From positions 275 to 64,274 of the forward strand of contig JBGATS010000001.1 of NCBI GenBank assembly GCA_044229075.1: 64,000 nucleotides of DNA. Direction: 5' to 3'. The notes below the pieces were generated by a model. That model was not told where the DNA came from, searched no databases, and worked only from the letters and a program-made list of their open reading frames with translations. Position numbers and translations under genes: made by a program. The stretch comes from Minisyncoccia bacterium (GTDB lineage Bacteria > Patescibacteriota > Minisyncoccia > Phycocordibacterales > UBA1006). Shown in pieces: positions 3,051 to 62,200 of the stretch; position 1 is the stretch's first letter; each line of letters opens with the position of its first letter.

Positions 3051-3484
3051 ATCTTGTTTAAATTTATGGTTAACAATTAAAATTATAATTTTAATTACCT
3101 GTATATCCAGTAGTAGTGGATAGTCAGATGATTGTTGTATGCGTACACAGAACGTCGTGTGTACAGAACCAACCAATGTCATCGAGACCGACTAGAGAGT
3201 TTGATTCATGGTGGCATACCCACCCGCGGTAATGATCCTGTTTTATAGGACGATCACTACCGCGTGCGGTGTTCGAGACGATGTCGAGACCATAGTCCGA
3301 ATATGCGGTACAGTATATCATAGAAAAAGAAAAAATGTCTATATTTATAAGAAATAATCTCTCAAGGACATGTTTTTCATTTGTAATGATGCTGACCTCT
3401 ACCCATACAGACGATTCTCGGGGAAAAATCTTACACGGAAACTGTTTTTATAATACCAGATATTCATCTATGTGGAGGGGTCGT

Positions 3485-30733: not shown

Positions 30734-33700
30734 TTATTTCTTCTCTACTGTATTCCCTTCACTGTTCCAAATAATACTTTCTGCACCAACAGTCGTTAAT
30801 AACTCTTTTTGAAGTTCACTATTTGCAAACCATGCTGGTTCTGCAATTTCAAGATAAACGGTTACACGATCACTTGGCATCAGGTTTGCATCTTTTCGCA
30901 TATCCTGGATTGTGCGGACCATGTCACGCATATCGCCTTCGTTACGCAAATCATCGGTGATTTCTGTATCCAGTTCAACCGTTCCCTGTTCCAAAGAGTC
31001 TTTTACCAGAATTTCTTTTATATTCAACTCGTCTTTAATGATATCAAGATAATCATTTGGTAGGTTTAATTCTGAAACTGAGAGTTTTGAAAGGGGTTGG
31101 CGAACTTTAACGTTTGCTTTTTGTCGTGCTTCCAGTCCGAGTGTTACGATATCACGAACTGACTGCATATATGAGATTACATTTTTAAAATCATATTCTG
31201 CATCACGGCGATCAATCCACCATCCTAAATGTACTGACTCTGGGTCGCGTTGCCATTTCACCTTTTGCCAAATCTCTTCGGTAATGAAAGGTGTGAAAGG
31301 TGCCATTGTCAGAGATAGGTTTCTCAAAATTAACTGCGTTGTTCGTAATGCCTTTTTTCGATCCATTTCATCATTTGATTTAAACCGATCTCGCGATCGT
31401 CTAATATACCAAGTTGATAATTCATTGATAAAATCTCGAATTGCTCGTGCCGGCATTAATACATCGTATTCATCCAACCCTTGCGACACAGTTCTAGAAA
31501 GTATATCCAGCTGAGCAAGTATCCAAGTGTCTAATACATTGGTTGGATTAATATATGGATTATATTCATCTTCATCCAGACTTTCGTCTGTTTTATACAT
31601 CTCATAAAAACTCACCACATTCAACAATGGATTAAAGACTTTTTTCTTTACCTCATCCAATGACTTTTCATCAAAGTTTTTGGTTTCACCTGGCTGGTTT
31701 ACACTGTAGAACCAGAATCGTGCGACATCTGCGCCAAATTTTTCGAATACTTCCCATGGTGAGACAATATTCCCTTTTGATTTTGACATCTTTGTTCCGT
31801 CTGCCGCCATCAACAATCCTAAACAAATTACGTTTTTGTAGTTATTGGTCGGTTCATCGTTGAGCAAGTTTGCAATCGCGTGCATCGTATAAAACCATCC
31901 GCGTGTTTGGTCGACTCCTTCTGAAATGTAATCTGCTGGCAACGGCTTAAAATCTACCGGCTCGCCTAACTTGTGAGACTGTGCATACGCCATCGCTCCG
32001 GAATCGAACCATACATCCATGATTGCAGATGTGCGTGTTAATTTTTCACCATCAAGCTCGAGTTCAATCTGGTCGATATATGGTTTATGAAAATCAAGTT
32101 CGTAGTTTTCATTATGCGGAAGTGGTGTGAAATCAAGTTCGCGGATTTCTGCATTAATAAACGGATATTCTTTCGGAGGGTTTTTTAAAAGAGTTTCAAA
32201 AGTAAATCCTTCACTTGCAAGAACTAACGCACGAGCTGATGAATTATGACCAACAATTAAGATATTTTTACCTTGATATTTTAGATCTATTTCATGTAAA
32301 AACTCTCCGCATCGTTTAATTACATCCTGATATGATTCACCTCCTTCTGCTTTATAGGTATATCTATTTGGTGAAACATTTCGCATTTTCAAATATTCAT
32401 CAAGGTTTTTTTCTTGATATTCGTCTCCTACCTGCCATTCAATTATACGTGAATCGGTAATAATATTTTCTGGATTATATCCGATTGTCTCTGCAACAAT
32501 TTTTGCAGTTTCTTGAGTTCTTAAAATTGGAGACGCAATAATAATATCAACTTTGGTTGATTTTAATTGCTCTGCAGATTTTATTACCTGCTCTTTTCCT
32601 TCGTCGGTTAAATGATTATTTGGGTCACCTTTAAAATCCCAAACGTTTTTTATATTACTGTGTGCCTGACCATGTCGCATTAATAAATATTTATTCCCAG
32701 ATTTCTTTGAATATTTTTTAATATCATCAATCGAGCCAACCACGACACGTTTTGATCCGTCTGCAGTTTCCCACACCGGAATTGGTGTTCCCCAGTATCG
32801 TTCACGTGAAATTGCCCAATCCTTGATTCCGTCGAGCCATTCACCAAAACGTCCTTCCTTTATATGATCTGGTTCCCAGTTGATATTTTCATTTGCCTTT
32901 AAGAGTTTTTCTCGTAATGAAGACATTCGGAAATACCATGAACCACGTGCGTAATACAATAATGGAGTGTTGCATCGCCAACAATGCGGATAACTGTGCG
33001 CGTAGTTTTCTTTTTTGAATAACAAATTGCGTGCTGTCAGATCATTAATGATATCAATCGCAAGTGTTGGTTTTCCTGATTCATCAGATTCTTTTACATA
33101 GCGACCTGATAGTTTAATCGTGTCAGTATCACAACCATTAACATACTTTCCTTCCTCGTTCACAACGTGGAATTTTGGAAGATTATGTTTTGTTCCAAGC
33201 TCAAAGTCATCAGCTCCATACATGGGTGCAATATGCACAATTCCTGTTCCATCCGTTGTTGTTACAAAATCTGCTGCATACACCTGGAATGCATTTTCAA
33301 GTTTTGATTTCTGATCTGCTGGAAGCAAATCTGACAGAAATGGATAGAGTGGTTCGTATTTGAGACCAACAAGATCTGAGCCTTTCCGAGAAGGATAACT
33401 TATTGTTGTGCCAGATGCTCGTGCGTAAGTTAAATATGTTCCTATCTCATTAAAAAGAGAGTGTTTATTATCTCGAGATGCTTCAAAAATGTCTTCTGAG
33501 ATTAGAAGGGTTACGCCATTATAGTTCCATTGTTTATATTTAACATCTGCCCCAACAGCAAGCGCAACATTCCCTGGAAGTGTCCACGGTGTCGTCGTCC
33601 ACGCCATGATATATGTATTGTCATCCACCACAAAGTCACCAATTTTCTGATCTTTTTCAACTTTAAACTTCACATACGCCGTTACATCCTTTATATCCTG

Positions 33701-34348
33701 ATACGCGCCTGGTTGGTTCAATTCATGACTCGATAAAGCAGTTCCACATCGCGGACACCACGGCAGAATCTTAAAATCTTTGTACATTAAATCATTCCCT
33801 GCTGCATCCTTTCGTTCAGAAATTTTCTTTGCCACACCCCACAATGCCTCGATATAACTGTTTTCATACGTCACATACGGATTCTGCATATCGAGCCAAT
33901 AACCCATACGGTCGGTCAATGCTTCCCATTCGTGTTTATATTCCCAAACACTTTCTTTACATTTTTTGTTGTATGCAGCCACGCCATAGACTTCGATTTC
34001 CTTTTTTGATTTTAATCCAAGCGCTTTTTCAACTTGTAATTCTACTGGCAATCCGTGTGTATCCCAACCAGCCTTTCGTTTTACGTTAAAGCCGCGCATT
34101 GTTTTGTAACGCGGAATGATATCCTTGAATGATCGTGCGCCGACATGGTGAATTCCAGGGCGACCGTTTGCGGTTGGTGGACCTTCGAAAAATATGAAGT
34201 CACCTTGTGTTGATTCTTTTGCAAGGGTTTTTTCAAAAATCTGATTGTCTTTCCAGAACTGCAAAATAGCCTCTTCGCAAGCTGCAGTTTCAGATTTTTC
34301 CAGATTCTCTGGGATAAAGTTTTTTGGGTTTGGGTTCATAGTTGACAA
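30734..34348 (-). CDS. ileS: isoleucyl-tRNA synthetase with an internal histidine-phosphatase (PGAM/RHG-type) domain insertion
   Basis: HIGH-region PTANGRPGIHHV, WTTTPWTLPGNVALAV, KMSKS all present. An extra ~230 aa lies between PIPVWE and MDVWFDSG and contains LLMRHGQAHSN...IIASPILRTQETA...LIVGHNSSARAL. TTG start at 34348; first ATG at 34339. Confidence 0.88.
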   Translation of the reverse strand: MSTMNPNPKNFIPENLEKSETAACEEAILQFWKDNQIFEKTLAKESTQGDFIFFEGPPTANGRPGIHHVGARSFKDIIPRYKTMRGFNVKRKAGWDTHGLPVELQVEKALGLKSKKEIEVYGVAAYNKKCKESVWEYKHEWEALTDRMGYWLDMQNPYVTYENSYIEALWGVAKKISERKDAAGNDLMYKDFKILPWCPRCGTALSSHELNQPGAYQDIKDVTAYVKFKVEKDQKIGDFVVDDNTYIMAWTTTPWTLPGNVALAVGADVKYKQWNYNGVTLLISEDIFEASRDNKHSLFNEIGTYLTYARASGTTISYPSRKGSDLVGLKYEPLYPFLSDLLPADQKSKLENAFQVYAADFVTTTDGTGIVHIAPMYGADDFELGTKHNLPKFHVVNEEGKYVNGCDTDTIKLSGRYVKESDESGKPTLAIDIINDLTARNLLFKKENYAHSYPHCWRCNTPLLYYARGSWYFRMSSLREKLLKANENINWEPDHIKEGRFGEWLDGIKDWAISRERYWGTPIPVWETADGSKRVVVGSIDDIKKYSKKSGNKYLLMRHGQAHSNIKNVWDFKGDPNNHLTDEGKEQVIKSAEQLKSTKVDIIIASPILRTQETAKIVAETIGYNPENIITDSRIIEWQVGDEYQEKNLDEYLKMRNVSPNRYTYKAEGGESYQDVIKRCGEFLHEIDLKYQGKNILIVGHNSSARALVLASEGFTFETLLKNPPKEYPFINAEIRELDFTPLPHNENYELDFHKPYIDQIELELDGEKLTRTSAIMDVWFDSGAMAYAQSHKLGEPVDFKPLPADYISEGVDQTRGWFYTMHAIANLLNDEPTNNYKNVICLGLLMAADGTKMSKSKGNIVSPWEVFEKFGADVARFWFYSVNQPGETKNFDEKSLDEVKKKVFNPLLNVVSFYEMYKTDESLDEDEYNPYINPTNVLDTWILAQLDILSRTVSQGLDEYDVLMPARAIRDFINELSTWYIRRSRDRFKSNDEMDRKKALRTTQLILRNLSLTMAPFTPFITEEIWQKVKWQRDPESVHLGWWIDRRDAEYDFKNVISYMQSVRDIVTLGLEARQKANVKVRQPLSKLSVSELNLPNDYLDIIKDELNIKEILVKDSLEQGTVELDTEITDDLRNEGDMRDMVRTIQDMRKDANLMPSDRVTVYLEIAEPAWFANSELQKELLTTVGAESIIWNSEGNTVEKK

Positions 34349-34402
34349 TTTTGGTAAATTATGGATAATAATGAGTAAATATTTTTAACAATTAAATTAA
34401 TG
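34315..34402. repeat. direct repeat A (~88 bp; ileS promoter/5' end) duplicated at 35621-35712
   Basis: near-identical stretches taaagttttttgggtttgggttcatagttgacaa...ttatggataataatgagtaaatattttt at both sites. Confidence 0.7.
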
Positions 34403-34792: not shown

Positions 34793-34819
34793 AAAGTATT
34801 CCTACGGGAATGCTTTTTT
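34793..34819 (+). terminator. rho-independent terminator (agtattcc-tacg-ggaatgct + T5)
   Basis: seen in sequence. Confidence 0.5.
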
Positions 34820-35654
34820 ATTGTAATCGTTTATTACTAGTCTTGCTTCCTACTTGCTTTTTCATAATTTTTTTAATATCTGGCTCCGCGGGTAATTTTT
34901 CTGGAATAATACCTCGTGACAAGAGGGCTTTTCGAGTTGTTTGAGAATTCTCGAGAACTTCACGAACAAGTCTTTCTTTACCAGAAATATTTTTTGTTTT
35001 AATATTATGATCAGTCATGGCAAGTGCAAAATCCTTTGCACGAAGCTCCACATCGCTATCAAAATCTGCAAGTGGTCTATTGTTTGGGATTTTCTTTTTT
35101 GCTTTTAGTTGTCGTGTTGTTAATCCACCATACAGCGCCTGTATGTGTTTATCTTTGAATCCTGCAAAATCTACTGATGTATTAATTCCTCGAGTATATA
35201 CCGTACCTCTAATATTCTTTTCTGTATCGGCAAGTTTTTTTCGTGAAGCAATTCTCTTATGCTCATATTCTGCAATTTGTAGCAATTCTTGTTTACGTGT
35301 TTGGGTGGCAAAATACATTTGTGCTTCAGCGATTTCAGGTTTTCGTGGATCGCCGTTTTGAGCAATAAGGTAACATGCGTAACGTGTTAAAAGAATATCA
35401 TCAACGGGACGCTTTGCTTTTGAACCTATGGCGACCATTTTGTCGGCGCCGACAAAATGGTCCGCACTATTTATATTTTGTGTGTCACAAGAATTCTTTG
35501 CACGAATAATTGCATCAGAAAATTTTCTCCATTCCTTATAACCAAGTAATGGGTGGAGTTCACGTGCAGACCAATACTCAAAATTATCTATTGTTTTTTT
35601 AATAGATTCCAGATGGTGTATAAAGTTTTTTGGGTTTGGGTTCATAGTTGACAA
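34818..35654 (-). CDS. DinD-like (DNA-damage-inducible protein D family) protein carrying a duplicated IleRS N-terminus
   Basis: EYWSARELHPLLGYKEWRKF resembles the DinD family's conserved N-terminal region (recalled from memory, not searched). The first 12 codons, MSTMNPNPKNFI, are identical to those of ileS. Confidence 0.5.
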   Translation of the reverse strand: MSTMNPNPKNFIHHLESIKKTIDNFEYWSARELHPLLGYKEWRKFSDAIIRAKNSCDTQNINSADHFVGADKMVAIGSKAKRPVDDILLTRYACYLIAQNGDPRKPEIAEAQMYFATQTRKQELLQIAEYEHKRIASRKKLADTEKNIRGTVYTRGINTSVDFAGFKDKHIQALYGGLTTRQLKAKKKIPNNRPLADFDSDVELRAKDFALAMTDHNIKTKNISGKERLVREVLENSQTTRKALLSRGIIPEKLPAEPDIKKIMKKQVGSKTSNKRLQ

Positions 35655-35712
35655 CTTGGATTAATTATGGATAATAATGAGTAAATATTTTTTAAATCTT
35701 TAAATTAAAAAT
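35621..35712. repeat. direct repeat B (copy of ileS promoter/5' end)
   Basis: see repeat A. Confidence 0.7.
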
Positions 35713-39690: not shown

Positions 39691-40896
39691 TTACTCTTTC
39701 TCTTCTTTTTTCTCAAAATTCTTTCGTAATTTCATTGCAAAATCACCATCGGAATTTTTTAATACCCCTAAAGACTGTGCGTGCTGTATACCACTACTAA
39801 GTGGTAGTAATACTTTTTGTCTTGGGTTTATTCCTTGTTTATCTAACTTGTTGTGTCTATCAAAAATAATAGCAGTTTTTTCATCAATTGGTGATACATC
39901 ATTCAAATCATCTGCAACAAACTCTGGTTCGATATCTAATTCTGATTTTATTTTTTCAGATAAAATTATTGTAGGAAATAATAATTTTATCTTTTCTTCT
40001 TTAATTGCATCATCTATATAACCCTCTATTGTTTTACCTTCTCTAATGGCATATTCTTTGCTGTTGTCTTTAAATTCATCACTCCTATAATAGTTAACAT
40101 TTCTTGTTTTTTCAAGCAAGGCATCTAATTTTATCATTTTTTCTTTTAAAAAATCACTCTCTAGGAAATTTTTAGCTTTGTTTATTATTTCTTCTTTTTG
40201 ATCTACTGGAATATTATTATACATGTCTTCAATAGAGTATTTACTTGTCACATCACCTACATGATCTCCAATATTTGAAATAGCCAAAACGACACGGTTT
40301 ACTTCTGGAACCTGATCTTTAATAAGAGATACTACTTCCCCAGCGTCTACATCATCAAAAAGTCTTTTAAATTCATTACCTCGTTGTAATGAATTTGCAA
40401 CAACAGAATCAAGCTGACTTATTTCTATTCCTTTGTTTTTAAGAATATCGTTTAAAGTACCTCTCAAGTCAACTTCTCCATTGTCAGAATTTTTAAAATT
40501 AGTATTCTCTGGAAAATCATCTTCTGTTAGTTTTTTGTATCCAAATACAGCATTATAACAAGTATTATCAAGAGTAACTTTCGAATCTGAATGTTCTAAA
40601 ATCTCGTTCAAAATAACTTTTGCATTTGGCTCTTCTCCTGCTTGGAAAAGTGGTTCTATGTCTGGAAACATTTTATTATAAAGTGCATTTCCACGAAAAA
40701 TTGGGTAATATTCAAGCTCACCAAGTTTCTCTTTGTTTTCTCGATTTTCGTGATGAGCTCTTTTTGCTTCTTGATATTCTTCAGTCTGTTGCGCTTCTTC
40801 TAAAGTCTCCTGTGCTTTTTCAGGATCAGTTTTGCGAATCTCTTTTAAATCTTTCGCGAGGTTATCACGATATTCTTTTGCATTAAAATTTTCCAT
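39691..40896 (-). CDS. hypothetical acidic protein (~400 aa)
   Basis: start placed at MENFNAKEY; C8/G8 homopolymer 50 nt upstream. Confidence 0.45.
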   Translation of the reverse strand: MENFNAKEYRDNLAKDLKEIRKTDPEKAQETLEEAQQTEEYQEAKRAHHENRENKEKLGELEYYPIFRGNALYNKMFPDIEPLFQAGEEPNAKVILNEILEHSDSKVTLDNTCYNAVFGYKKLTEDDFPENTNFKNSDNGEVDLRGTLNDILKNKGIEISQLDSVVANSLQRGNEFKRLFDDVDAGEVVSLIKDQVPEVNRVVLAISNIGDHVGDVTSKYSIEDMYNNIPVDQKEEIINKAKNFLESDFLKEKMIKLDALLEKTRNVNYYRSDEFKDNSKEYAIREGKTIEGYIDDAIKEEKIKLLFPTIILSEKIKSELDIEPEFVADDLNDVSPIDEKTAIIFDRHNKLDKQGINPRQKVLLPLSSGIQHAQSLGVLKNSDGDFAMKLRKNFEKKEEKE

Positions 40897-41930
40897 ATAG
40901 TTTTTGTATAAAAAGTTAATAATAAAGTGGAGAGACAATACCATTTTACCCCCCCCCCGATACAAAGTCAATGTTATATTTTCCTTGCTATTTTTATCTA
41001 TTTTGTCAATATTCGGCAAAATCGGGGCAACCGGGAGTGGTCGCGCATTCGACACGCCCACGTATTGGCTCATTCAGAGCCTCTTAGTTCTGTTTTTGTG
41101 CGCGAGAGAGGACTTGGTCACACATAATTTTTCTGACGAAAAATTTGCTCGACCCTGCCTCGCGGCGTTCGCCTTTTCGCTTTCGCTCAAAACTCACGCA
41201 ACGCTCCAACTTTCAAGTCCTCACGTACGCAATGCAGGTTGCGTACTTCTCTAAACAAGTATACTAAAAACAGCGAAATAATCGCTGTTTTTAGTATATA
41301 GTGCCGGTACAGGAACTCAGCTTGAACTCCTCAATTCATTAGAATATATGCTCAATATGGATAAAAAGCTATCAGAATTTAGCGTATCTCTTACAGAAAT
41401 ATATGAAGGTAAGCATACAGTAAGTACACTACATATCCCTAACCTTATTTTATAGATCTTCATATTGTTCTGTATTTACACAACAATATACATATCTTGT
41501 AAATAGTTAGAAAAAAGAGTATACTTAACCATATGAACAAGAAAGATAATCTCTCTGAACTGGTCCAAATAGTGCAGGATCAGAAAAAGCCAGAACCTAA
41601 AAATGATACTCGTGTAATTACCAATGACGGGACCGTGGTTATTTTGGATACAAAATCTCCAAAAACTACATAGTTGTGTATCTACAGCATAATCTGTGTT
41701 TTTACCTCCTTAATTCCTTTGTTTTACAATGTATACGGGTAGTTGTATCTTGAACGTAGTGAAAGGTACCATACCCCAGGGAAAACGATTAAAAAGTTAC
41801 CGAAGTTTATTTCCTAAAATATCCATACATAGTAACTAAAAATTGAAAATATAGACCACACTTCGTGTAAAAATACACTTCAAAAAACTCTATTTTCTGA
41901 TATACTTTGAAGGTAAAATTTAATAAAAAA

Positions 41931-43266: not shown

Positions 43267-44901
43267 ATGGAAAGCAATATAACCGTACAAGACCTTGCTA
43301 AACTCTTTCGTTCAGATATTGAACACAATGAAGCAACTCCTCAAACACTCAAATACGTAGTATATCTCCGTAAATCTACCGAAGAAAAAGGTAAGCAAAT
43401 CCGCTCTATTCCCGATCAAAAGAAAGAGTGTCTTGAATATGCAAAACGAGAAGGAATTAATGTTAAAGATATTGTCGTAGAAACACGATCCGCAAAAGAA
43501 AGTGGTACTCGTCCCTATTTTAAAAAAATGCTAGAGGATTTAAAAACTGGTAAATACAATGCAATCCTTGCGTGGCACCCCGATAGACTAGCTCGTAATA
43601 TGAAAGACGCGGGTGAGATTATAGATTTTTTAGATAGAGACTATATCCGTGATATGAAATTTGTCAGCTTTACCTTTTCAAATGACACGAGTGGTAAACT
43701 CTTACTCGGTATTACATTTGCAATGTCTAAAGAATACTCGGACAAGCTTTCTGATAACGTAACGCGTGGTAATACTCGAAAAATGGAAGAAGGTAAAATA
43801 GTAAGTTTTATTCCCAAAGGATATTACAAAGATAGCCGTGATTTTCCAAGACCAGACGGTGTGGCTTTTGAAGTTATTTCAAACGCCTTTCGTATGCGAC
43901 TAGAGGGTGAAACTATGGAAAGTATCGCGAAGAGTTTAAATACACAAGCACTACTCGTAAATAAAACTGCTGAAAATAAACTTGGAGTATATCGTAAACA
44001 GCAAGTAATGCGAATGTTAGAAAATCCATTTTATGCAGGTGTCTATTTACACGGAGAGAAAATAGAGATACTTGGTAATGGTTATGATTTCAAACCAATA
44101 ATTACCCCCGAAGAATATTTACTCATAAACAAGAAAACCGGAGAAAAGTCAGGTAAACTCAAACGGGTACTCCGTTTCTTTAAAAAAGAAGGAGTAAAAG
44201 CAGATCTATTACGCCAGTGTGTTTTATGTGCAGAATGTGGACACACTATGTCAGCTGGTATTATGACCAAAAAGACAAACAAAGGTATAGAGAATAGATT
44301 TCACTATCGGTGCGATCAGAAAGACTGTATATCGAGAAACAAGAATGTACGACCAAGTATCATAATTAGTTACGTAGCTGATTATATAGAAACTCACTTT
44401 AGTCCAAGTAGGGCAAAATGGGAGCATTATCAAGTAGAAGCCAAGAAAGACTTCGCACTACTCAAAAGTCGTCTTGTAGGTGAACTAACAGCTCTCACAG
44501 CCCATAAAACGGACCTTACAAACGGTATGACTGATACAAGACTAGAGTTACGTCGCTTAATAGAAGAAAATGGTAATGAGGAGCTACGAAAAGACTATGA
44601 AGTAGATTATATGAAAATGAGTAATGAACTTAAAGAGGTGGATCTTTTAATAACAGAATGTAAAGAAAAAACAAAAGAAAACCTTAAACTTCTGGACCAA
44701 ACAGAGTTTCTTGAACTTATGCAAAATCTCCCTAATTTTATTAGGAATACAAGAGATATGAAAGTTCTCGACGAAATCATTAGAAAAATCTTCTTGAACT
44801 TCACCGTAAACCAAAAAGGAGTAATAAGCTCAACACTTAATACTCCTTTCGATATGGTTTTAGGACCAAAAGTCCCATATAGTGCGCGAGAGAGGACTTG
44901 A
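43267..44901 (+). CDS. large serine recombinase (resolvase-domain + recombinase + zinc-ribbon)
   Basis: The YLRKSTEE catalytic-serine context and the resolvase N-domain match large serine recombinases. The C-terminal Cys pairs (CVLCAECGH...CDQKDC) fit a zinc-ribbon. It is paralogous to the 53397-54752 gene. Confidence 0.85.
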   Translation: MESNITVQDLAKLFRSDIEHNEATPQTLKYVVYLRKSTEEKGKQIRSIPDQKKECLEYAKREGINVKDIVVETRSAKESGTRPYFKKMLEDLKTGKYNAILAWHPDRLARNMKDAGEIIDFLDRDYIRDMKFVSFTFSNDTSGKLLLGITFAMSKEYSDKLSDNVTRGNTRKMEEGKIVSFIPKGYYKDSRDFPRPDGVAFEVISNAFRMRLEGETMESIAKSLNTQALLVNKTAENKLGVYRKQQVMRMLENPFYAGVYLHGEKIEILGNGYDFKPIITPEEYLLINKKTGEKSGKLKRVLRFFKKEGVKADLLRQCVLCAECGHTMSAGIMTKKTNKGIENRFHYRCDQKDCISRNKNVRPSIIISYVADYIETHFSPSRAKWEHYQVEAKKDFALLKSRLVGELTALTAHKTDLTNGMTDTRLELRRLIEENGNEELRKDYEVDYMKMSNELKEVDLLITECKEKTKENLKLLDQTEFLELMQNLPNFIRNTRDMKVLDEIIRKIFLNFTVNQKGVISSTLNTPFDMVLGPKVPYSARERT

Positions 44902-44965
44902 ACCTCCACCCCGTTGCCAGGACTACCACCTCAAGGTAGCTTGTCTACCAGTTTCAACACTCGCG
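44882..44965 (-). tRNA. tRNA-Leu (anticodon GAG), class II long variable arm
   Basis: Cloverleaf folded by hand: GCGCGAG acceptor, anticodon loop UUGAGGU, T-arm GGAGGTTCAAGTCCTCT. Confidence 0.8.
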
Positions 44966-45017
44966 CAATGAAGCCCAGTATACTGGGATTTATTTTTTTG
45001 TAAAGAAAAACTGCATT

Positions 45018-46628: not shown

Positions 46629-47990
46629 TCAAAGTGGTTTTTCTAGTTTTGAAAAATCTACTAATAATTCATTAAGTCGGTTACTAACAGGATCAGTAGT
46701 ATTATCTTCTAATAAATTTTTAATCTCTGGATATTTCCAGGAAAGTTCTGTTAACGAATTAATCATTGCGTCATATCGACGAAATACACTGTTTTGGGAA
46801 TTTTCGGCAAATTCAGAAAGAATACGACATTGATGAATAATTTGTTTCATTATCTTTAATTTTTGAGGATTTTTATAAAATGTTTCAAATAATTCTATAT
46901 TTTCTGAATTTTGTAATATTAACACTAACTCTTTTACGTCTTCCAACTGAAAACATATTAATATTTTTGGAACAATAAATTCGCTCAATAAATTTCCTTG
47001 GTAATCCATACCATATTTTATCTTTGTTTTGTATCCCTGTTGAATAGAGGAAAGTAGTCCAAAAAACTTTTGACGAAATTCCTCACTTTCAAGACCGCGA
47101 AAAGTTACGTCAATTCCAAGCCCAAGAAAATCACTCGATTCATCATGTTTTACAATTTCTAACGTACTATCAACCCCACGCTTTATATCGTCAAATTCTG
47201 AAGCGAGATTCATTTTAACCTCGTCACCAAAACATTTTACTTGATCAATAAGAAAAACCAACGCTCGTTCTGTTAATGTTGCAATTTTCTTTGCCTGTTC
47301 AAGTTTTCTCTGCTGATCTTTTTCTGGATGTTGTTTTTGGGTGAATAACTCTTTGGTTTTTTGAAGACTCTCGAAATCCTGTTTTGCCTCTTCTTCGCCG
47401 TTTTTCAACAATCCTCTCTCTGCAAATTTTGTGTAATATTCTAGACTTCCAGTATTGTTAATTGATTCTAGAAAACTAGTTTTCTTGTACAATCTTTCGA
47501 GTTCCTCTTGATTTTTAAAAATATTAGCTTTTGCAATTTCTTCATCCAAAAGGTTTGCTTCTATGATCTTTAATTGGTCTTGGCTAATTTCTGCTTGCTG
47601 TATTCCACTTAATTGAAAATATTCAGTTTTTACTTCTTGGAACACTTTTTCTACTTTTTGTTTCTTTTCTTTAATTGGTTCAGTAATAATTCCTGCGTTT
47701 CTGAGGGTGTCAATCACTTCTTCTGTATGTGCAGCTGGGTGTAGTTTTTTTATAATACCTGATATATATTCTGAAAGTTTTATAATGTTTTCTGGTGTAT
47801 CAAAAAAAGAAAAGTTGTTCATTTGTCCGGTCACGATGTATTTTTCAAAAAATTTCTTCGCAGCGAGCCACGAACTGGATGACGCTGTATCAGCGAAAAA
47901 ATTATGCGCATTCTCGATATCTTTATCAGAAAAAATATTTTGCGCGACCGACTTGTTGTTAAAAGGGTTTAAAAAATTTGAAGATAACAT
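46629..47990 (-). CDS. hypothetical protein (453 aa, helical/acidic)
   Basis: long ORF, no domain recognised. Confidence 0.45.
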   Translation of the reverse strand: MLSSNFLNPFNNKSVAQNIFSDKDIENAHNFFADTASSSSWLAAKKFFEKYIVTGQMNNFSFFDTPENIIKLSEYISGIIKKLHPAAHTEEVIDTLRNAGIITEPIKEKKQKVEKVFQEVKTEYFQLSGIQQAEISQDQLKIIEANLLDEEIAKANIFKNQEELERLYKKTSFLESINNTGSLEYYTKFAERGLLKNGEEEAKQDFESLQKTKELFTQKQHPEKDQQRKLEQAKKIATLTERALVFLIDQVKCFGDEVKMNLASEFDDIKRGVDSTLEIVKHDESSDFLGLGIDVTFRGLESEEFRQKFFGLLSSIQQGYKTKIKYGMDYQGNLLSEFIVPKILICFQLEDVKELVLILQNSENIELFETFYKNPQKLKIMKQIIHQCRILSEFAENSQNSVFRRYDAMINSLTELSWKYPEIKNLLEDNTTDPVSNRLNELLVDFSKLEKPL

Positions 47991-53396: not shown

Positions 53397-54752
53397 TTAC
53401 TTTAATAAAGTTATTTTCTTCTCTTTCAGTATCAACCTACTCCTTAAATGTCCCATAAGTTCACGCTTTTCAAGTGGTGTACCTTCTCGCAATACATACT
53501 TAGCATACTCTCTGGTATTCACATCATCCTCGTTGATGCTGTATTTTGGTGTACCTTTTGTTGCTAGTCTTTGTAGTCTATTGAATCGCTTTATTTCTTC
53601 CTCGAGCTTCATTCGCATACCTAACTCATTAATACTCACTTTATCTATGACCTTGAATAGTTCCTCGATAAGTTCCTCCTCTCGTATGTATTTGTTCTTA
53701 CAATTTCTATCTTTTGCCTTAGAGCATGAGTAGTAGATATATTTTGCATTGGTTCCATCTTTGAGCAACTTGTATTTTTCTTGAGCTGTTATACCTGACT
53801 GGCACATTCCGCATGTAAATAATTTCGTAAAGGCAAACTCTCGATTTTCTCGAACAATTTTATCTCGCTTTAGATGTTCTTGTGCTTTTTTAAACAACTC
53901 TTCATCAATTATTGGCTCATGACTTCCTTGGTACCAATTACCGCTATTTTTAGGATATTCGAATGGTCCATAATATATCGGCATATCAAATATACGATAA
54001 ACCCCTGAGAGTGTCAGGGGTTTGTTTCCTCGAGTATAAAAATTTAACTCAAATCGCAACCAGTTGTATACCTTGCGACCACTCCAATTTTCATAGGCAA
54101 CCTTTTCAAACATTTTTTTGATTATTGGGGCTCGCTCTGGATCAATGGCGAGCTGACATTTTCGATCCATAATTTTCTGGTTGAGATATCCAAGTGGTGC
54201 CATTCCAGGCCAGAGACCCATTTCTACTCGTGTACGAAGTCCGCGCTTCACATTGATACCTCGGTTATCGTTCTCAAGTTTTGCTTGCGATCCGAGAATC
54301 ATTAGGAGAAATTTCTCATTTGGATTATTTGAAAACGTCTGTCCGAAAGTTCGTATTTGGAGGAGTTTACCTGCATCCATCAGGTCTACGATTTTTCCTA
54401 GATCTCCGGCGTTTCTGGAAATACGATCTGGTGCCCATGTCAGAATCGCATTATATTTACCATCTCGAATTTCCTCTACGATTTCATTAAATACGGGTCG
54501 TTGTCCAGTTTCTTTTGCGCTGTGACTTTCTCGTTTCATAGCTACAATCTCTAGTCCTTCACGTTCGGCGAGTGCAAGCATTTCATTAATTTGAGAGTCT
54601 ATTGAAAGTACCTGTCTCTCCTCAGACTCTGTCGACTTTCTTGCATAAAGGCAATATTTCGCCTTTATTATATTTTGCTCTACTGGGGCTATTTCATAGC
54701 CATTTGGTGCATTTATTTTCATACACCTAACTAATGCCGCAGGACGTCCCAT
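53397..54752 (-). CDS. large serine recombinase (paralog of 43267-44901)
   Basis: YARKSTESEERQV...DRISRN catalytic domain, recombinase domain, C-terminal Cys cluster. Confidence 0.85.
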   Translation of the reverse strand: MGRPAALVRCMKINAPNGYEIAPVEQNIIKAKYCLYARKSTESEERQVLSIDSQINEMLALAEREGLEIVAMKRESHSAKETGQRPVFNEIVEEIRDGKYNAILTWAPDRISRNAGDLGKIVDLMDAGKLLQIRTFGQTFSNNPNEKFLLMILGSQAKLENDNRGINVKRGLRTRVEMGLWPGMAPLGYLNQKIMDRKCQLAIDPERAPIIKKMFEKVAYENWSGRKVYNWLRFELNFYTRGNKPLTLSGVYRIFDMPIYYGPFEYPKNSGNWYQGSHEPIIDEELFKKAQEHLKRDKIVRENREFAFTKLFTCGMCQSGITAQEKYKLLKDGTNAKYIYYSCSKAKDRNCKNKYIREEELIEELFKVIDKVSINELGMRMKLEEEIKRFNRLQRLATKGTPKYSINEDDVNTREYAKYVLREGTPLEKRELMGHLRSRLILKEKKITLLK

Positions 54753-55427: not shown

Positions 55428-56939
55428 ATGACTAATCAAAAATACACACAAGAAGACTTAAACAAAATCCTCTGGCAAGCAGCGGATTCTTCTCGCATAC
55501 AAGTTGACGCAGGTGTTTACAAAGACTACGTACTTGCAATGCTTTTCTTTAAATATCTTAGCGACCTTTCAAAAAAGAAACGAAATGAATACAAAGAACG
55601 TTTTGGTAATGATGAAAAACGTACTGAAGAAAAAATGAAGCTTGATCGCTTCTATCTTCCTCCAAAGTCTTCTTTTGATTATATCTATTCTATCCTCGAA
55701 CAAGACAATCTTGGTGAAGAAATAAACAAAGCACTTCATCGTATTGAAGATGCCAACAAGGAAAAACTTGATGGTGTATTTTCTGTAGACTTCAATTCTG
55801 AATCAACTTTAGGAAAACTTGCAGAGCGAAACAAAATGCTCCGTCATCTAGTACAAGACTTTGCAAAAATGGATCTCTCGGATGTAAATGACGATATTAT
55901 TGGTAATTCATATATGTACATGATTGAGCGCTTTGGAGCCGATGCAGGCAAAAAAGCAGGAGAATTTTTCACTGTGCGTAACGTTGCTCATCTTGTAGCA
56001 AGACTAGCTGAACCAAAAGTAGGTGCACGTATTTGTGATCCATGTTGTGGTTCTGGAGGACTACTACTGCTTGCAGGTGAAGAAGTAGAAAAACAAGGTT
56101 CAAAAAACTATGCTCTTTACGGTCAAGAATCTACAGGATCAACCTACCAACTCGCTCGTATGAACATGTTCCTCCATGGAAAAGACTCTGCACGACTTGA
56201 ATGGGGCGACACATTAAATAATCCTCTTCTTGTAGAAAATGATCACTTAATGAAGTTCGACACCATTGTTGCCAATCCTCCGTTTTCTCTTAAAAAATGG
56301 GGTGCTGAACATGCAGAGGCTGATAAGTATAAACGCTTCTTGCGTGGTGTTCCACCAAAAGACAAAGGTGACTTTGCTTTTATTACTCATATGGTAGAGA
56401 CACTTAAACCAAAGACTGGTCGCATGGCAGTAGTTGTTCCTCATGGTGTTCTCTTCCGTGGAGGAGCAGAAGGAAAAATCCGTGAGCAACTTCTTAAAGA
56501 GAATATCGTTGAAGCTGTTATCGGACTTCCTGCAGGGTTGTTCCAAACAACTGGTATTCCTGTAGCAATTCTTATACTTGATCGCTCACGAGAAAAAGGA
56601 GGAGAAAATGAAAACAAAAAAGATGTATTCTTTATCGAAGCATCAAAAGAGTTCAAATCTAACAAAGCGCAAAATATTCTTACTGATGAAAATATCGAGA
56701 AGATTTATTCTACTTACAAAACTCGTAAGGATGTAGAAAAATTTGCTCGTAAAGTAAGCCTTAAAGAAATTGAGGAAAATGATTTCAATCTCAACATCAC
56801 TCGTTATGTAGATACATTCACAGAAGAAGCTCCTGTAGATATCAAAGCAAATTTGAAAGAGCTTGCTGAGCTTGAACCACAGCTAGAGAAGCTTGAGAAA
56901 CAAATGGTCGTATATCTAAAGGAGCTAGGAATTAAATAA
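55428..56939 (+). CDS. hsdM: type I RM N6-adenine DNA methyltransferase subunit
   Basis: NPPF motif (IVANPPFSLKKW), AdoMet motif I DPCCGSGG. Confidence 0.9.
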   Translation: MTNQKYTQEDLNKILWQAADSSRIQVDAGVYKDYVLAMLFFKYLSDLSKKKRNEYKERFGNDEKRTEEKMKLDRFYLPPKSSFDYIYSILEQDNLGEEINKALHRIEDANKEKLDGVFSVDFNSESTLGKLAERNKMLRHLVQDFAKMDLSDVNDDIIGNSYMYMIERFGADAGKKAGEFFTVRNVAHLVARLAEPKVGARICDPCCGSGGLLLLAGEEVEKQGSKNYALYGQESTGSTYQLARMNMFLHGKDSARLEWGDTLNNPLLVENDHLMKFDTIVANPPFSLKKWGAEHAEADKYKRFLRGVPPKDKGDFAFITHMVETLKPKTGRMAVVVPHGVLFRGGAEGKIREQLLKENIVEAVIGLPAGLFQTTGIPVAILILDRSREKGGENENKKDVFFIEASKEFKSNKAQNILTDENIEKIYSTYKTRKDVEKFARKVSLKEIEENDFNLNITRYVDTFTEEAPVDIKANLKELAELEPQLEKLEKQMVVYLKELGIK

Positions 56940-56943
56940 ATAT

Positions 56944-58071
56944 ATGAAAAACTTTGATTATAAAATTGTAGAACAAAAGTACCCTGACAGTTTAAGCCAG
57001 AATGGTTTTGATTTGATATTTAAAAATCCAGATCATGGGGCTTTAAATTTTTCGGAAATCGAAGCAGAATTTGTTGAATATTATGATATGTTTTTTGAAT
57101 TAGAAAAACTTGATTACAAAAATTCTCTATATCAGGAAGAAATTAATAACGTAGATAGAATAAGAAACGAACTAATAAATATATTTAACCAAATACAACA
57201 ATTTTCTATATCTGTACCAAACCCAACTCATGTTAAACAAAATATAATTAATCAGTTTAGAGATCAGATAAATAGAAATTCAAAACCTATAGAAGATTTC
57301 ATTTTAAAAATTAAATCAAAGAAATTCTTTGATTCTTCTGAAGGATCTAAAGCATTTGAAGAGATTCAAAAAGAAAAAGATTTAATTATTATCGAAAAAA
57401 ATAAGATTGAAAAAATTTCAGAGGAAATTGAAAGATATAGAGATGAATTAAAAGAGAAAATTAAAAACACTCAATTTGAAAAAATAGTTCAAACAGAGAG
57501 AACTAGCGGCGAACTAGAGTCAGCATCATTCTTTGAAGAGCAATCCTTAATTCATAAATTAAACGCTGATCAAATTGAAAATGAATTAGGGTGGCTACAA
57601 AAAAGAACAAAATTTGAAAAATATATTTACTGGCTTTTAGGGATTAGTGCGGGATTATTTTTGCTTAGTTTTGTTTTCTTAGTTATCTGGGGTGGCGTAA
57701 ATGAAGATGTACAAATTATTGATGCGATTAAGGTATGGGAAGCGTTCTGGGATATAAGAGCTGGACTTTTTATTCTTTCTTTGCTTTCTATTTTTTACAC
57801 GGGTTTATATTTTGCTACTAAAAATTATTCAAGAGAAAAAGACTTTGAGTATCAAAATAAGAATAAATCAAATATAGTAAAAAGTGTTGGATTATTTTCA
57901 TCTGGATCATCTGATCAAATTAGGCAGAATATTTATGAGATTGCCGCACGAACAATCTTTTCTGCCTACTCATCGTTTAATGAAGTAGATAAAAATCAAA
58001 ATTCTCAAATAAATCTTTCAGCTTCAACCGCTGACATAACTAAAAAGATTACATCAGCACATGAAAACTAA
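56944..58071 (+). CDS. RM-embedded hypothetical protein: ~220-aa coiled-coil N-domain + two C-terminal TM helices
   Basis: It is translationally coupled, 4 nt after the hsdM stop and overlapping the hsdS start by 11 nt. TM helices at YIYWLLGISAGLFLLSFVFLVIWGG and AGLFILSLLSIFYTGLYFA. Confidence 0.5.
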   Translation: MKNFDYKIVEQKYPDSLSQNGFDLIFKNPDHGALNFSEIEAEFVEYYDMFFELEKLDYKNSLYQEEINNVDRIRNELINIFNQIQQFSISVPNPTHVKQNIINQFRDQINRNSKPIEDFILKIKSKKFFDSSEGSKAFEEIQKEKDLIIIEKNKIEKISEEIERYRDELKEKIKNTQFEKIVQTERTSGELESASFFEEQSLIHKLNADQIENELGWLQKRTKFEKYIYWLLGISAGLFLLSFVFLVIWGGVNEDVQIIDAIKVWEAFWDIRAGLFILSLLSIFYTGLYFATKNYSREKDFEYQNKNKSNIVKSVGLFSSGSSDQIRQNIYEIAARTIFSAYSSFNEVDKNQNSQINLSASTADITKKITSAHEN

Positions 58072-59242
58072 TCAACCACAAAAAAATATTTCTTCAGATT
58101 GGCAACAAGTAAAGCTTGGTGCGGTTTGTGATATTTCAGCTGGCGGTACACCATCTACTGACATTTTAGAATATTGGGAAAATGGAAGTATTCCTTGGGC
58201 AAATTCTGCAGAGATAAATAAAAGAGATATTTATAAAACTAATAATTTTATTACACAAAGTGGTTTAGATAATTCATCTGCAAAAATTGTCCCAGAAAAT
58301 AGTGTTTTAATTGCACTTGCAGGACAGGGTTCCACTCGTGGTAAGGTTGCAGTTAATAAAATACCTTTATCAACAAATCAGTCTCTTGCTTTTTTTGTGC
58401 CTAAAAAAGATGTTGATTACCGATTTTTAAGATCAGTTCTTGAAATGAGATATCAAGAATTAAGATCTATTTCTACAGGTGATGGCGGTCGCGGTGGTTT
58501 AAATTTACAAATATTAAAATCACTAAAGATAAAACTCCCACCTCTCCCTGAACAAAACCGGATAGTTTCAGTCCTTGAAACTTGGGATAAATCTATTGAG
58601 AAACTCGCACGGAAAATTGAAGTAAAAAAACAAATCAAGAAAGCTTTGATGGATCAATATGTCTACAAAAGGAAAGATTCAACTGAGTATTTTATTGATA
58701 GTTTATTCGAACTCGGAAGGGGGCGTGTTATCGCTAGGGGTGAGATAGAAAATAATCCCGGTATATATCCTGTTTATTCTTCTCAGACATCAAATAGTGG
58801 AATATTCGGGAACATTTCTACATATGATTTTGAGGGTGAATATCTTACTTGGACAACTGACGGTGCTAATGCTGGGAGGGTTTTTTACAGAACTGGAAAG
58901 TTTAATTGTACGAATGTCTGTGGTACAGCAAAACTGAAAAAAGATTTAAAGGTTAATTTATATTTTGTCTATTCATATTTGAACTACATAACAAAGAATT
59001 ATGTTTCTTATGTTGGTAACCCCAAACTGATGAACGGTGTTTTTGGGAAAATTCAAATCAAACTACCAGATATCGAAGAGCAGGATAAAATTAGTAAAAT
59101 TTTAATTGTCTCAGACAAAGAAATAACCGAACTCGAAAAGAAATTATCCATTATCAGAGAACAGAAACGTTATCTCCTCAACAATTTAATCACTGGCACA
59201 ATTCGTACACCAGATACATTATCAACCAATAAACTCATATAA
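58061..59242 (+). CDS. hsdS: type I RM specificity subunit (two TRDs)
   Basis: 393 aa, duplicated TRD + conserved coiled-coil spacer architecture. Confidence 0.85.
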   Translation: MKTNQPQKNISSDWQQVKLGAVCDISAGGTPSTDILEYWENGSIPWANSAEINKRDIYKTNNFITQSGLDNSSAKIVPENSVLIALAGQGSTRGKVAVNKIPLSTNQSLAFFVPKKDVDYRFLRSVLEMRYQELRSISTGDGGRGGLNLQILKSLKIKLPPLPEQNRIVSVLETWDKSIEKLARKIEVKKQIKKALMDQYVYKRKDSTEYFIDSLFELGRGRVIARGEIENNPGIYPVYSSQTSNSGIFGNISTYDFEGEYLTWTTDGANAGRVFYRTGKFNCTNVCGTAKLKKDLKVNLYFVYSYLNYITKNYVSYVGNPKLMNGVFGKIQIKLPDIEEQDKISKILIVSDKEITELEKKLSIIREQKRYLLNNLITGTIRTPDTLSTNKLI

Positions 59243-59246
59243 ATAT

Positions 59247-62200
59247 ATGTTAGAAAAAGTAAATTTTGATGAAGCACGACAGTCACAGCTCCCATTCATA
59301 GAGCTTCTCTTGAACATGGGCTATACATATATTCCTGCAGAGGAAGCACTACGACAACGCGGTGGTGATACTTCTAATTTCATTCTCGCTGACATAGCGA
59401 CTGAAAAGTTGATGGAAATAAATGGTTATGAGGTTGGTGGGACTGAATACAAATTCAGTGAGAAAGACGTACGAGATGCTATCGATGAATTAGAGCATAT
59501 CCAATATGAAGGACTCATTGATACTGCACAAAAGATCTACAACACCATCATGCCAACAAGCGGCGGTAAGACTGTTAAGGTAAATCATGGCGGTAAAAAA
59601 GTATCAAAGAATTTCAAATTCATTGATTTTGAAAACCCAAAAAATAATTCATTCCACGTAACTGCTGAGTTCGTCGCTAGTGGTAAGCAAAATATTCGTC
59701 CAGATATTGTATGTTTTGTGAATGGTATTCCTTTCGTAGTTATTGAAAACAAGAAGTCAGGTGTTGCTGTTGTAGAAGCACTTAACCAGATGAACCGCAA
59801 TCAAGGTCCTGAGTATTGTCCAAAACTATATACCTACACACAGCTTCTTGTTGGTACAAATGGTAAAGATTTACAATACGGCACAACTGGTACACCAAAC
59901 AAGTTCTATGCTGTGTGGAAAGAGAAAGGCACAGACGAAGACGTATTGAATGGAGAAATATCTAAACTCATACAAAAAGAAATAGATGCTACTACTTACT
60001 CGGAAATTTTACAGGATCTCAACGGATACACAGATGGTCACAAACAAAGAACAGACCGCCTTCCTACTGAACAAGACCGAGGAGTGTTTTCACTTTTTGA
60101 ACCTGTGAGACTTCTTGATCTTACAAAGAACTATATTCTCTTTGATGCAGGAGTAAAGAAACTTTCTCGCTATCAACAATACTTTGCTATCCATAAAATG
60201 CTCAAGCGTGTTGAAGAGGAAGAAACTACCGAACAAGGTATCACTCGCCGAAAGGGTGGGCTTGTTTGGCATACGCAAGGATCTGGTAAATCACTAACGA
60301 TGGTGATGTTTGTTAAGGCTCTCATTGAAGATCCTCATATCCTTAACCCTCGTGTGATTATTGTTACTGACCGTCGAGATTTGGATAAACAAATCAAAGA
60401 CACATTCAAGAACTGTAACCTAAAAAAGGAAGTTATTCAGGCTACAAGTGGTCAAAACCTCATTGATCTTATTAAAGAGAAAAATCTAGCAGTTATTACT
60501 ACTCTGGTACAAAAGTTTGAATCAGCTGCAAAAAAGAGTGCTGGGTTTGTTGATACTGATGAAAATATTTTCGTACTTATCGACGAAGCTCACCGAAGTC
60601 AGAATGGTGTCGCCAACTTTGAAATGGGTCGCATTATTCCGAATGCATCTTATATCGGATTCACAGGTACTCCACTCATGAAGGATGAGAAAGAAAGTTG
60701 GAGAAAGTTTGGAGGATATATCGATAAATATACTATTGATGACGCTTTAGCCGACAACATAATCCTGCCTCTTATCTATGAAGGTCGCTATGTTGATCTT
60801 ATTCAAAATGCTGAGCAAATCGATCGTCATGTTGAGCGTATCACTGAAGGTTTGAACGAAAAACAAAAAAAAGAATTACAACGTTATATTGGAAGTAAGA
60901 TCATTAAAGACAATCCTCAGCGTATTGTTGAGATTGCGTATGATATTGAAAAACACTTCATGTCTAACTTCCAAGACACAGGGCTTAAGGCACAAATTGT
61001 TGCCCCATCAAAATACTCTGCTATTTTATTCCAGAAGTTTTTTGAAACACGAGGGAAAATAAGAACTGCCGTCATTATCTCTGATGAGCATGAGGATGGT
61101 GATGAAGAAAACCTTCATAAAAAAGAAGTGGTTGCTTACCTAGAAGGTGTCCGAAAAAACCATAGTAGCGTCGATAAGTATGAGAAAGATGTTGTTGAAA
61201 GTTTCAAGTATAACGATGATGGAATCGAAGTCATCATTGTTTGTGACAAACTACTCACGGGTTTTGATGCACCTAGAAATACCGTCCTATATCTTGCTAA
61301 AGACTTACGCGATCATAATCTTTTGCAGGCTATCGCTCGTGTAAACCGTTTGTTTGAGAATAAGAAAGAAAAACCAAAGACTGCTGGCTACATAATGGAC
61401 TACTCAGAGAATGCTAAGAATATCGATACTGCGATGAAGCTCTTTGGTAACTATGATGAGAATGATGTAAAAGGCACTCTTATTGATGTTGCAGAAAAGA
61501 TTCAAGAACTTGAGCAAAGTTATTCTCTTGTTCACGATATTTTTAAGGAAGTCAAAGGATCATCTGATGATGAGGTATATTTACAGTTCCTTTCTGATCA
61601 ACCAAAGCGAGAAACGTTCTACAAAACCCTCAATGCTTTCATTAAGAATCTAAGTGAATGTTTTGTATTGCAGGACTTTGTTCATGAGTTCAAACATCTT
61701 GATTTGTACAAGCGTGAACTCAAGAAATTTGCTGAACTTCGTAAGGCAGCTAGTTTGCAATATGCAGACCGTGTTGATCTATTAGAATACAAACAATCAC
61801 TTGTTAATATTCTCGATAAATATGTTGATGCTCGTGGAGTTGAACTTCTTACAAAACAAGTAAACATTACCGACCGAAAACTTTTTGAGGAAGCTGTCGA
61901 GAATCTCGGATCTGATAAATCAAAAGCTGAAGCTATCGCTGCACAAACTCAAAAAACTATCACTGAAAAACTTGATACTGATCCTGAGTTTTACGAAAAG
62001 TTTTCTAAAAAGATTTCTGAGATTCTTGAAAAAATGAGGCTCGGTAAGCTTGCCGATGTTGAAGCATTAAAACAAATGAAGTTAATTCGAGATGATGTTG
62101 TAAATAAGAAAGATGAAAGCCTTCCAGGAAAAATTGACTCACAAAAAGGATCGGATGTCTTTTATCGTAACTTACGAACACAATTCGATAGTCTAAAACT

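Follow-up and report, generated by a model that had tools for sequence, protein, structure and literature searches.

Aminoacyl-tRNA synthetases are among the best-studied enzymes, and the accessory modules known in them serve editing, tRNA binding and, in eukaryotes, signalling. The closest described systems for the gene discussed here are the type-2 isoleucyl-tRNA synthetases (IleRS2) of Priestia megaterium (8C8U-8C8W) and Thermus thermophilus (1ILE), in which a Rossmann/HUP fold, a CP1 editing domain, the KMSKS motif, an anticodon-binding domain and a type-2 C-terminal domain follow one another in the same order as in the product of ileS from a Minisyncoccia bacterium. This gene lies in a 64,000-nucleotide stretch of DNA, hereafter the window (GenBank assembly GCA_044229075.1, contig JBGATS010000001.1, positions 275 to 64,274). 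Solved IleRS structures carry nothing in one loop of the catalytic core, where 8c8w has 4 residues and the window protein has 200. Judged from its sequence, the extra segment is a complete, apparently active branch-1 histidine-phosphatase domain nested in the IleRS catalytic core. Across the Candidate Phyla Radiation (CPR), this phosphatase family shows genetic linkage to class Ia synthetases, with one further fusion to TsaC/YrdC.

Full-text searches of the literature found no paper that links this phosphatase family to IleRS or to valyl-tRNA synthetase (ValRS), and neither a phosphatase nor the CPR is mentioned in a survey that covered 96,219 IleRS sequences (preprint 10.64898/2026.02.03.703510). 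Public databases annotate the inserted proteins as 'class I tRNA ligase family protein' or 'isoleucyl-tRNA synthetase', with the architecture unremarked.

An intact type-2 isoleucyl-tRNA synthetase

Outside the insert, the window gene is intact and encodes a functional-looking IleRS2. Among the NCBIfam profiles, TIGR00392 (ileS) matches with 836.6 bits against a cutoff of 621.4, and the ValRS models remain under their cutoffs. The Pfam domains run tRNA-synt_1, His_Phos_1, tRNA-synt_1, Anticodon_1 and DUF5915, the last two giving the type-2 C-terminal organisation. The best structure matches are IleRS2 8c8v and 8c8w (E=2e-205 by sequence; E ~3e-76 and TMt 0.75-0.78 for the fold of the AlphaFold2 (AF2) model). 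The part ahead of the insert comprises the first Rossmann half, the CP1 editing domain and the first half of a zinc-knuckle loop (…WGTPIPVWETADGSKRVVVGSIDDIKKY), and the part behind it carries ELDFHKPYID…DVWFDSG, DQTRGWF, KMSKS, the anticodon-binding domain and the type-2 C-terminal domain (Table 1). The first-pass annotation of the window had described a continuous frame with the editing motif WTTTPWT and KMSKS on either side of the insert, and both points hold, the ORF running unbroken through 1204 codons. The HIGH motif, which it had called canonical, instead reads GIHH, an [A/G]XHH variant like that of bacterial IleRS2. This form of HIGH has been described for IleRS2 and is reported to confer mupirocin hyper-resistance (preprint 10.64898/2026.02.03.703510). 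Across 109 aligned homologues, GIHH and KMSKS vary little or not at all, and WTTTPWT is invariant.

The probable true start of ileS is the ATG at 34339 (codon 4), which matches a 100%-identical public protein of 1201 aa (P0121) carried on a 107,750-bp contig whose source is listed as NCBI. The first 12 ileS codons and 38 nt upstream belong to a 73-nt direct repeat, 95% identical (34314-34386 and 35620-35692), whose second copy is the start (MSTMNPNPKNFI) of a 278-aa open reading frame (ORF) with a Bro-N domain (34818-35654, minus strand). It looks like a ~1.3-kb insertion just upstream of ileS copied the ileS start and promoter region.

Position of the insert and its host loop

The protein aligns to P. 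megaterium IleRS2 8c8w and to T. thermophilus 1ile, its best PDB matches by sequence, in two blocks (query residue 543 at 8c8w 478 and query 744 at 8c8w 483, numbered from codon 5), and the insert stands in for the four-residue loop 479-482 of 8c8w. By this alignment the extra segment measures ~200 aa, where the first-pass annotation had implied ~220-230 aa. The same annotation counted ~290 aa between the GTPIPVWE and MDVWFDSG blocks; measured from motif to motif, the distance is 266 aa. Its phosphatase coordinates, 31980-32670, named the right region but lay ~40-130 nt too far to the 3' side of the gene (the segment occupies 32108-32707). The WGTPIPVW..DVWFDSG spacing of 266 aa compares with 67-149 aa (median 86) in 53 non-CPR IleRS2 and with 68-78 aa in insert-less CPR IleRS.

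The host loop, a small zinc knuckle (CxxC…CxC), belongs to the second Rossmann half and lies ~30 residues ahead of the DVWFDSG pocket motif and ~100 ahead of KMSKS. Because of the domain order given for these enzymes, the loop is probably CP3 (PMC11685878). The zinc ligands are gone in the window protein (…WETADGSK… / …ELELDGEK…; flanks at ~32708-32770 and ~32030-32107) as well as in 110 of 119 close relatives. Deeper insert-bearing lineages retain them, and so do CPR IleRS that have no insert. At the C-terminal junction, a 20-nt direct repeat, 85% identical (32091-32110 and 32130-32149), encodes E(I/N)(R/Y)ELDF two times: one copy closes the phosphatase (AEIRELDF) and the other opens the native ELDxHKPYID motif of IleRS. 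This repeat may be a microhomology relic of the insertion, or chance.

A complete histidine-phosphatase domain

Pfam places His_Phos_1 (PF00300) nested in tRNA-synt_1 with E=1.3e-30, as expected at first pass, and the phosphatase motifs quoted there are all present (LLMRHGQAHSN, IIASPILRTQETA and LIVGHNSSARAL). The insert columns invariant in 109 full-length homologues are the R and H of RHG, the S, R and T of SPxxRxxET, the E and the final H. Of 145 domains, which include tandem, free-standing, ValRS-embedded and TsaC-fused copies, 143 retain the R-H-R-E/D-H catalytic set; in the other two, a contig gap cuts the domain short. Among ~30 extra domains checked, a single Glu-to-Ala acid loss was found (domain 1 of P0370), and the rest keep R-H-R-E-H. 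Divergence of the phosphatase domain proceeds at about twice the rate of the IleRS body (Kimura distance 1.30 vs 0.61), and the body-to-domain distance correlation is weak (r=0.27), the domain distances being probably saturated.

Structure prediction agrees with the profiles. An AF2 model of the whole protein, built on the 109-sequence alignment, has a predicted local distance difference test score (pLDDT) of 90.5 and a predicted template-modelling score (pTM) of 0.85. The insert is confidently folded (pLDDT 92-97), both linkers are high-confidence, and the model as a whole matches IleRS2 structures, none of which has the insert. Modelled alone (pLDDT 82.9), the domain has a full-size cap region, and Foldseek aligns it with 4ij6, 4qih, 6s2q and 1h2e (TM 0.67-0.73, 20-26% identity). 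Its nearest folds are the phosphoserine phosphatase PspA, the glucosyl-3-phosphoglycerate phosphatase Rv2419c, a mycobacterial hydrolase, PhoE and a small S. pombe phosphoglycerate mutase. By sequence, the best match in the PDB is 1fzt (E=1e-10), and 4ij5 and 1h2e are also matched. The top sub-threshold NCBIfam matches of the insert are dPGM_arch, CobC and PspA; the alpha-ribazole phosphatase CobC (69.2 bits vs a cutoff of 162.9) and PspA (59.1 vs 350) fall short of equivalog membership, and SixA is absent from the insert's NCBIfam matches.

2,3-BPG-dependent phosphoglycerate mutase (dPGM) was considered as an identity for the insert and rejected, with 81.3 bits against a cutoff of 225 for dPGM_arch, 55.4 against 316 for PRK01295 and 42.7 against 320 for PRK01112. 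The RHG…N and H motifs are held in common with the S. pombe dPGM (1FZT), but the mutase segment E-R-x-Y-G reads E-W-Q-V-G in the insert ('NERYYGD' vs 'IEWQVGD' in the 1fzt alignment). In dPGM this segment, which follows the catalytic Glu, contains the mutase-specific substrate-binding residues; in the insert family it is not conserved, and the consensus after the catalytic Glu is 'ExxxGxFxGK'. Because the dPGM, CobC and PspA scores lie far below cutoff and the mutase segment differs, the insert is best regarded as a putative generic phosphomonoesterase and not as a mutase.

Table 1. Coordinates of the features discussed, with the gene context of free-standing relatives of the insert (positions refer to the window, or to the locus named)
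Feature	Position	Strand	Remarks
ileS, type-2 IleRS ORF	30734..34348	-	1204 codons from TTG, stop 30734-30736, no interruption
IleRS N-terminal part, aa 1-547	32708..34348	-	tRNA-synt_1 aa 28-550; aligns to 8c8w residues 12-478
GIHH, HIGH-type motif of class I	34145..34156	-	aa 65-68; non-canonical [A/G]XHH version
WTTTPWT, CP1 editing-domain motif	33581..33601	-	aa 250-256
Inserted segment, ~200 aa (aa 548-747)	32108..32707	-	complete histidine-phosphatase domain and short linkers
Pfam His_Phos_1 (PF00300)	32183..32686	-	aa 555-722; E=1.3e-30, 107 bits, cutoff 21.7
R558-H559 of RHG motif	32672..32677	-	H559 is the predicted nucleophile; invariant in 109 full-length homologues
R610, second phosphate-binding Arg (SPILRTQET)	32519..32521	-	invariant
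E637, predicted proton donor	32438..32440	-	E in 143 of 145 domains, D in the other two
H701, second catalytic His (IVGHNS)	32246..32248	-	invariant
IleRS C-terminal part, aa 748-1204	30737..32107	-	Anticodon_1 aa 940-1088, DUF5915 aa 1122-1198
KMSKS motif	31778..31792	-	aa 853-857
Serine recombinase / tRNA-Leu	43267-44901 / 44882-44966	+ / -	overlapping
Serine recombinase and type I restriction-modification features (joint entry)	53397-54752; 55428-62438	-; +	
P0247	L084		argS, phosphatase, ileS (938 aa), 1-nt gap
P0250	L089		argS, phosphatase, ileS
P0246	L085/L086		argS abutted by phosphatase, then 349-aa ORF, then ileS
P0248	L083 (5998-7192)		two tandem phosphatase genes overlapping ileS
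P0253, more distant	L087/L088		no ileS next door
P0335, more distant	L092/L093		no ileS next door; ordinary metabolic neighbourhood

Distribution of the inserted architecture

The architecture is widespread. A search with the full-length protein gave over 115 clusters (90% identity), 1130-1231 aa long, with the same Pfam order and 51-100% identity, on contigs of up to 442 kb from NCBI, JGI, ENA and Logan assemblies, with Patescibacteria, Nomurabacteria, Pacebacteria and Minisyncoccia as named hosts. A search with the insert and its flanks adds remoter examples (33-50% identity) from Uhrbacteria, Niyogibacteria, Nealsonbacteria, Sungbacteria and Colwellbacteria, and GTDB species representatives supply at least 20 loci with the insert, among them loci of Yanofskybacteria, Spechtbacterales and Peregrinibacteria. 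Few IleRS overall have this architecture, yet within CPR/Patescibacteria it is common, which makes it a lineage trait and not a one-off; the fusion, described at first pass as unusual, is so among IleRS in general but not within this group. Profiles, structure predictions and the more than 115 independent homologues agree on its central observation, an in-frame and complete histidine phosphatase nested in an otherwise intact IleRS.

An exhaustive search with the insert over 1.84 billion cluster representatives gave 778 matches at E<=1e-10, the best 150 of which were classified. IleRS-like bodies account for 104 of these (95 with a single domain, eight with two and one with three), 41 are short free-standing proteins and three are free tandem doubles; the remaining two are an IleRS fragment (P0313) and a Sua5/YrdC (TsaC)-His_Phos fusion (P0309; L095 977-2140). 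No host proteins other than IleRS, ValRS and this one TsaC fusion occur in the best 150 of the 778.

Both the site and the number of domains vary. Two tandem domains occupy the loop used in the window protein in IleRS from Peregrinibacteria/Peribacteria (L019, 1472 aa; L021, 1487 aa), in which the native DLHKPYID…CxC half of the knuckle is replaced. In P0311, P0321 and P0340 other IleRS loops bear the insert, following DVWFDSG, ahead of the anticodon-binding domain and following the …SWYF strand; these other sites fall at body positions ~428-454, 557-569 and 685-700. Insertion has thus reached a minimum of four loops, and in ValRS it has also reached the homologous one. P0370 (L090 703-5319) is a ValRS (849 bits vs a cutoff of 704) with two domains, one of them in the loop homologous to the window's, and P0264 is a ValRS fragment with three to four His_Phos domains. 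P0370 and P0311 are intact ORFs lying inside their contigs.

Short 'partial' matches on long contigs (P0011, P0023) raised the possibility of a split ileS, which was rejected: these are frameshift-fragmented calls, and EF-Tu is fragmented on the same contig. At L018, a single in-frame TAG (3208-3211) splits a Peregrinibacteria-labelled ileS whose halves are otherwise continuous, and may reflect a sequencing error, a pseudogene or recoding.

Free-standing relatives and gene neighbourhood

The closest free-standing relatives of the insert are proteins of ~190 aa with 35-43% identity to it. Of the five closest free-standing clusters whose context was looked up, four (P0246, P0247, P0248 and P0250; 36-38% identity) are placed between argS and an insert-less ileS (Table 1). 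At L083, L084 and L089 the phosphatase genes abut or overlap their neighbours, and the ileS beside a free-standing phosphatase keeps a normal zinc knuckle (68-78 aa). A hidden Markov model built from the insert found no His_Phos gene within ~4 kb of 60 non-CPR IleRS2 loci, and complete or near-complete insert-bearing loci (L003-L021) hold no extra upstream phosphatase copy. In the insert-bearing relative L001, argS directly precedes ileS. The argS gene that precedes ileS in relatives is absent from the window.

Free-standing and embedded copies differ in charge. Among domains from related loci, including L003-L089 and P0241-P0252, the free-standing copies are basic (median isoelectric point 9.5, n=13) and the embedded copies acidic (median 5.4, n=131), a difference consistent with a need for electrostatic docking that vanishes on tethering.

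In bootstrapped neighbour-joining trees of the IleRS body, with non-CPR IleRS2 as root, the CPR IleRS bodies form a clade with 75-77% support. The adjacent-gene lineages are nested in a 200/200-supported clade that includes insert-bearing sequences, monophyly of the adjacent-gene state and of the inserted state is recovered 0/200 times each, and two taxon samplings gave differing deep branch orders. On the phosphatase side, free-standing domains group together within the embedded ones, and at L083 the two genes arose by recent duplication. Because neither arrangement is monophyletic, the module has either switched between 'beside' and 'inside' more than once or been duplicated and then differentially lost. 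The multi-site, multi-copy pattern also raised the idea of a selfish, intein-like mobile insert. This was rejected, as intein and endonuclease domains are absent and the catalytic residues are strongly constrained.

What the phosphatase might do

The inside-or-beside pattern points to an unreported working partnership of phosphatase and synthetase. With roughly even confidence, the insert can be read as an active phosphomonoesterase functionally tied to the synthetase, which would clear a terminal phosphate from a nucleotide-type ligand in the charging cycle. It would work through a phospho-His559 intermediate, not as a mutase, and would stay physically associated with the synthetase as it acts: by covalent linkage in the window protein and, for the separate basic phosphatase, probably through complex formation. 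Such 'substrate/product clearing' would take the terminal phosphate off a nucleotide-type ligand that binds to the synthetase. The candidate substrates, in order, are a 2'/3'-(pyro)phosphorylated A76 end of tRNA that blocks aminoacylation, AMP or another mononucleotide, and inorganic pyrophosphate (PPi). Terminal-phosphate clearing is favoured because the hosts share adenylate-forming chemistry and a tRNA-linked function. The aminoacyl-adenylate, which the first-pass annotation had named beside a tRNA terminal phosphate, is chemically unlikely as a substrate for a phosphomonoesterase of this family.

Several observations weigh against terminal-phosphate clearing. Inserts sit in several different loops, so that tethering would matter more than exact geometry, and a strict channelling model is weakened. 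Peribacteria possess a separate inorganic pyrophosphatase (PMC4736985), which together with the double inserts of L019 argues against a simple pyrophosphatase replacement and weakens PPi as a substrate. The embedded domain is acidic, has a normal cap, is structurally nearest to metabolite phosphatases (PspA, GpgP, PhoE) and bears no resemblance to known RNA-end or protein phosphatases. The TsaC fusion is known from a single 3.7-kb contig, and fusion or adjacency demonstrates a functional link only statistically.

A metabolic origin of the domain offers the main alternative, possible though doubtful: the insert might be a housekeeping small-molecule phosphatase of the phosphoserine, sugar-phosphate or phosphoglycerate type, mechanistically unconnected to tRNA charging and fused to, or placed by, an essential constitutive gene purely for co-expression. 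The best sequence and structure neighbours of the insert are indeed metabolite phosphatases or small dPGMs, remoter relatives such as P0335 lie in ordinary metabolic neighbourhoods, and a CPR IleRS of 1394 aa (P0393) carries a Ser_hydrolase (PF06821) insert alongside its His_Phos insert, which suggests that passenger domains are tolerated. However, nesting in an essential enzyme is a costlier route to co-expression than a terminal fusion or an operon, and insertion has occurred repeatedly and independently into the catalytic core of one enzyme family. The confinement of hosts to IleRS, ValRS and one TsaC among the best 150 relatives and the conserved argS-phosphatase-ileS order likewise tell against mere co-expression, which leaves the charge shift between free and embedded copies unexplained.

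Within terminal-phosphate clearing, the first of the candidate substrates leads to a specific proposal, for now an unlikely one, that the domain, tethered to the synthetase, repairs tRNA 3' ends. A 2'/3'-phosphate or pyrophosphate would be removed from A76 during charging, on tRNA-Ile in the IleRS versions and tRNA-Val in the ValRS versions, the offending groups coming from toxSAS-type toxins or ribonucleases. Phosphorylation of tRNA 3' ends by toxSAS enzymes blocks charging in a tRNA-specific manner (PMC11559606; 10.1101/2021.04.30.441581). If the proposal is true, the insert would be a built-in CPR countermeasure against toxins or host defences that target tRNA ends, and a new functional class of synthetase accessory domain beside the editing domains.

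Distinctly improbable is a regulatory protein phosphatase that dephosphorylates His, Ser, Thr or Tyr on IleRS or a partner, for example by reversing inhibition by a toxin kinase near KMSKS. The histidine-phosphatase superfamily includes protein phosphatases (SixA, PGAM5, Sts-1), HipA-type kinases inactivate class I synthetases, and tethering to a target would suit the use of several loops. Against this stand the lack of specific SixA similarity among the insert's top matches, a full-size cap typical of small-molecule enzymes and the absence of a kinase from the neighbourhoods examined.

There is very little probability that the insert is catalytically irrelevant and serves only in spacing, tRNA binding or dimerisation. 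The loss of the host-loop zinc ligands in the window protein and most close relatives would allow the insert to have assumed a structural role, and tandem copies could mimic the dimers common in the histidine-phosphatase family; yet the five catalytic residues persist in nearly all copies while the rest of the domain diverges to ~30-40% identity, and the acid residue is lost in only the one P0370 domain.

A chimeric contig or gene-calling error joining a phosphatase gene into ileS has negligible probability and is rejected, since many independent assemblies share the same junctions (the clusters and GTDB species representatives above), the frame is continuous and AF2 is confident through both linkers, despite a slightly lower GC content in the insert (0.32-0.35 vs ~0.38-0.44); the first-pass concern over assembly is thereby answered by the homologues.

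A catalytically intact phosphatase nested in the core would give the charging step a type of accessory activity not seen before. Re-insertion at several IleRS and ValRS loops, in one to four copies, together with an operon-encoded substitute in sister lineages, suggests strong selection for proximity. The arrangement could reveal a new step of tRNA quality control or repair, or else an uncommon packaging of enzymes in ultra-small genomes.

Other features of the window

The window also contains two large serine recombinases, one of which overlaps a tRNA-Leu gene, and a complete type I restriction-modification system (HsdM, HsdS, HsdR; Table 1). These genes suggest that the stretch from 43 to 62 kb contains one integrated element or several. 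Pfam gives no family at E<=1e-5 for four ORFs, 324-460 aa long: 39691-41073 and 46629-47990 on the minus strand, and 56944-58071 and 86-1060 on the plus strand.

Comparison with known phosphatases and synthetase fusions

As a phosphatase, the insert resembles PspA (4IJ5/6), Rv2419c (4QIH) and PhoE/YhfR (1H2E) in fold, in the R-H-R-E-H set, in the cap and in size (~190-210 aa). These are free-standing metabolic enzymes, unlike the nested insert, and the IleRS-linked clade is set apart from branch-1 small-molecule phosphatases by motifs of its own, an N-terminal (K/R)xGN(K/R)Y-MRHGQA and a C-terminal AEIREL. In the bifunctional RNase H/acid phosphatase (Rv2228c type, NF005567), a branch-1 phosphatase is likewise covalently joined to a nucleic-acid enzyme, but that fusion is terminal and not nested, the partner enzyme is another one, and the insert scores 73.8 bits against a cutoff of 326.

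As a composite synthetase, the window protein has a precedent for enzyme-in-synthetase architecture in NF040702 ('ileS_w_GNAT'), a bacterial IleRS with an added N-acetyltransferase domain. Fold and chemistry differ there, and the window protein scores 288.9 bits against a cutoff of 1999 and has no acetyltransferase domain in Pfam. Synthetases with an additional enzyme domain, IleRS-GNAT among them, are already known; a phosphatase nested in, or standing beside, class Ia synthetases appears to be new.

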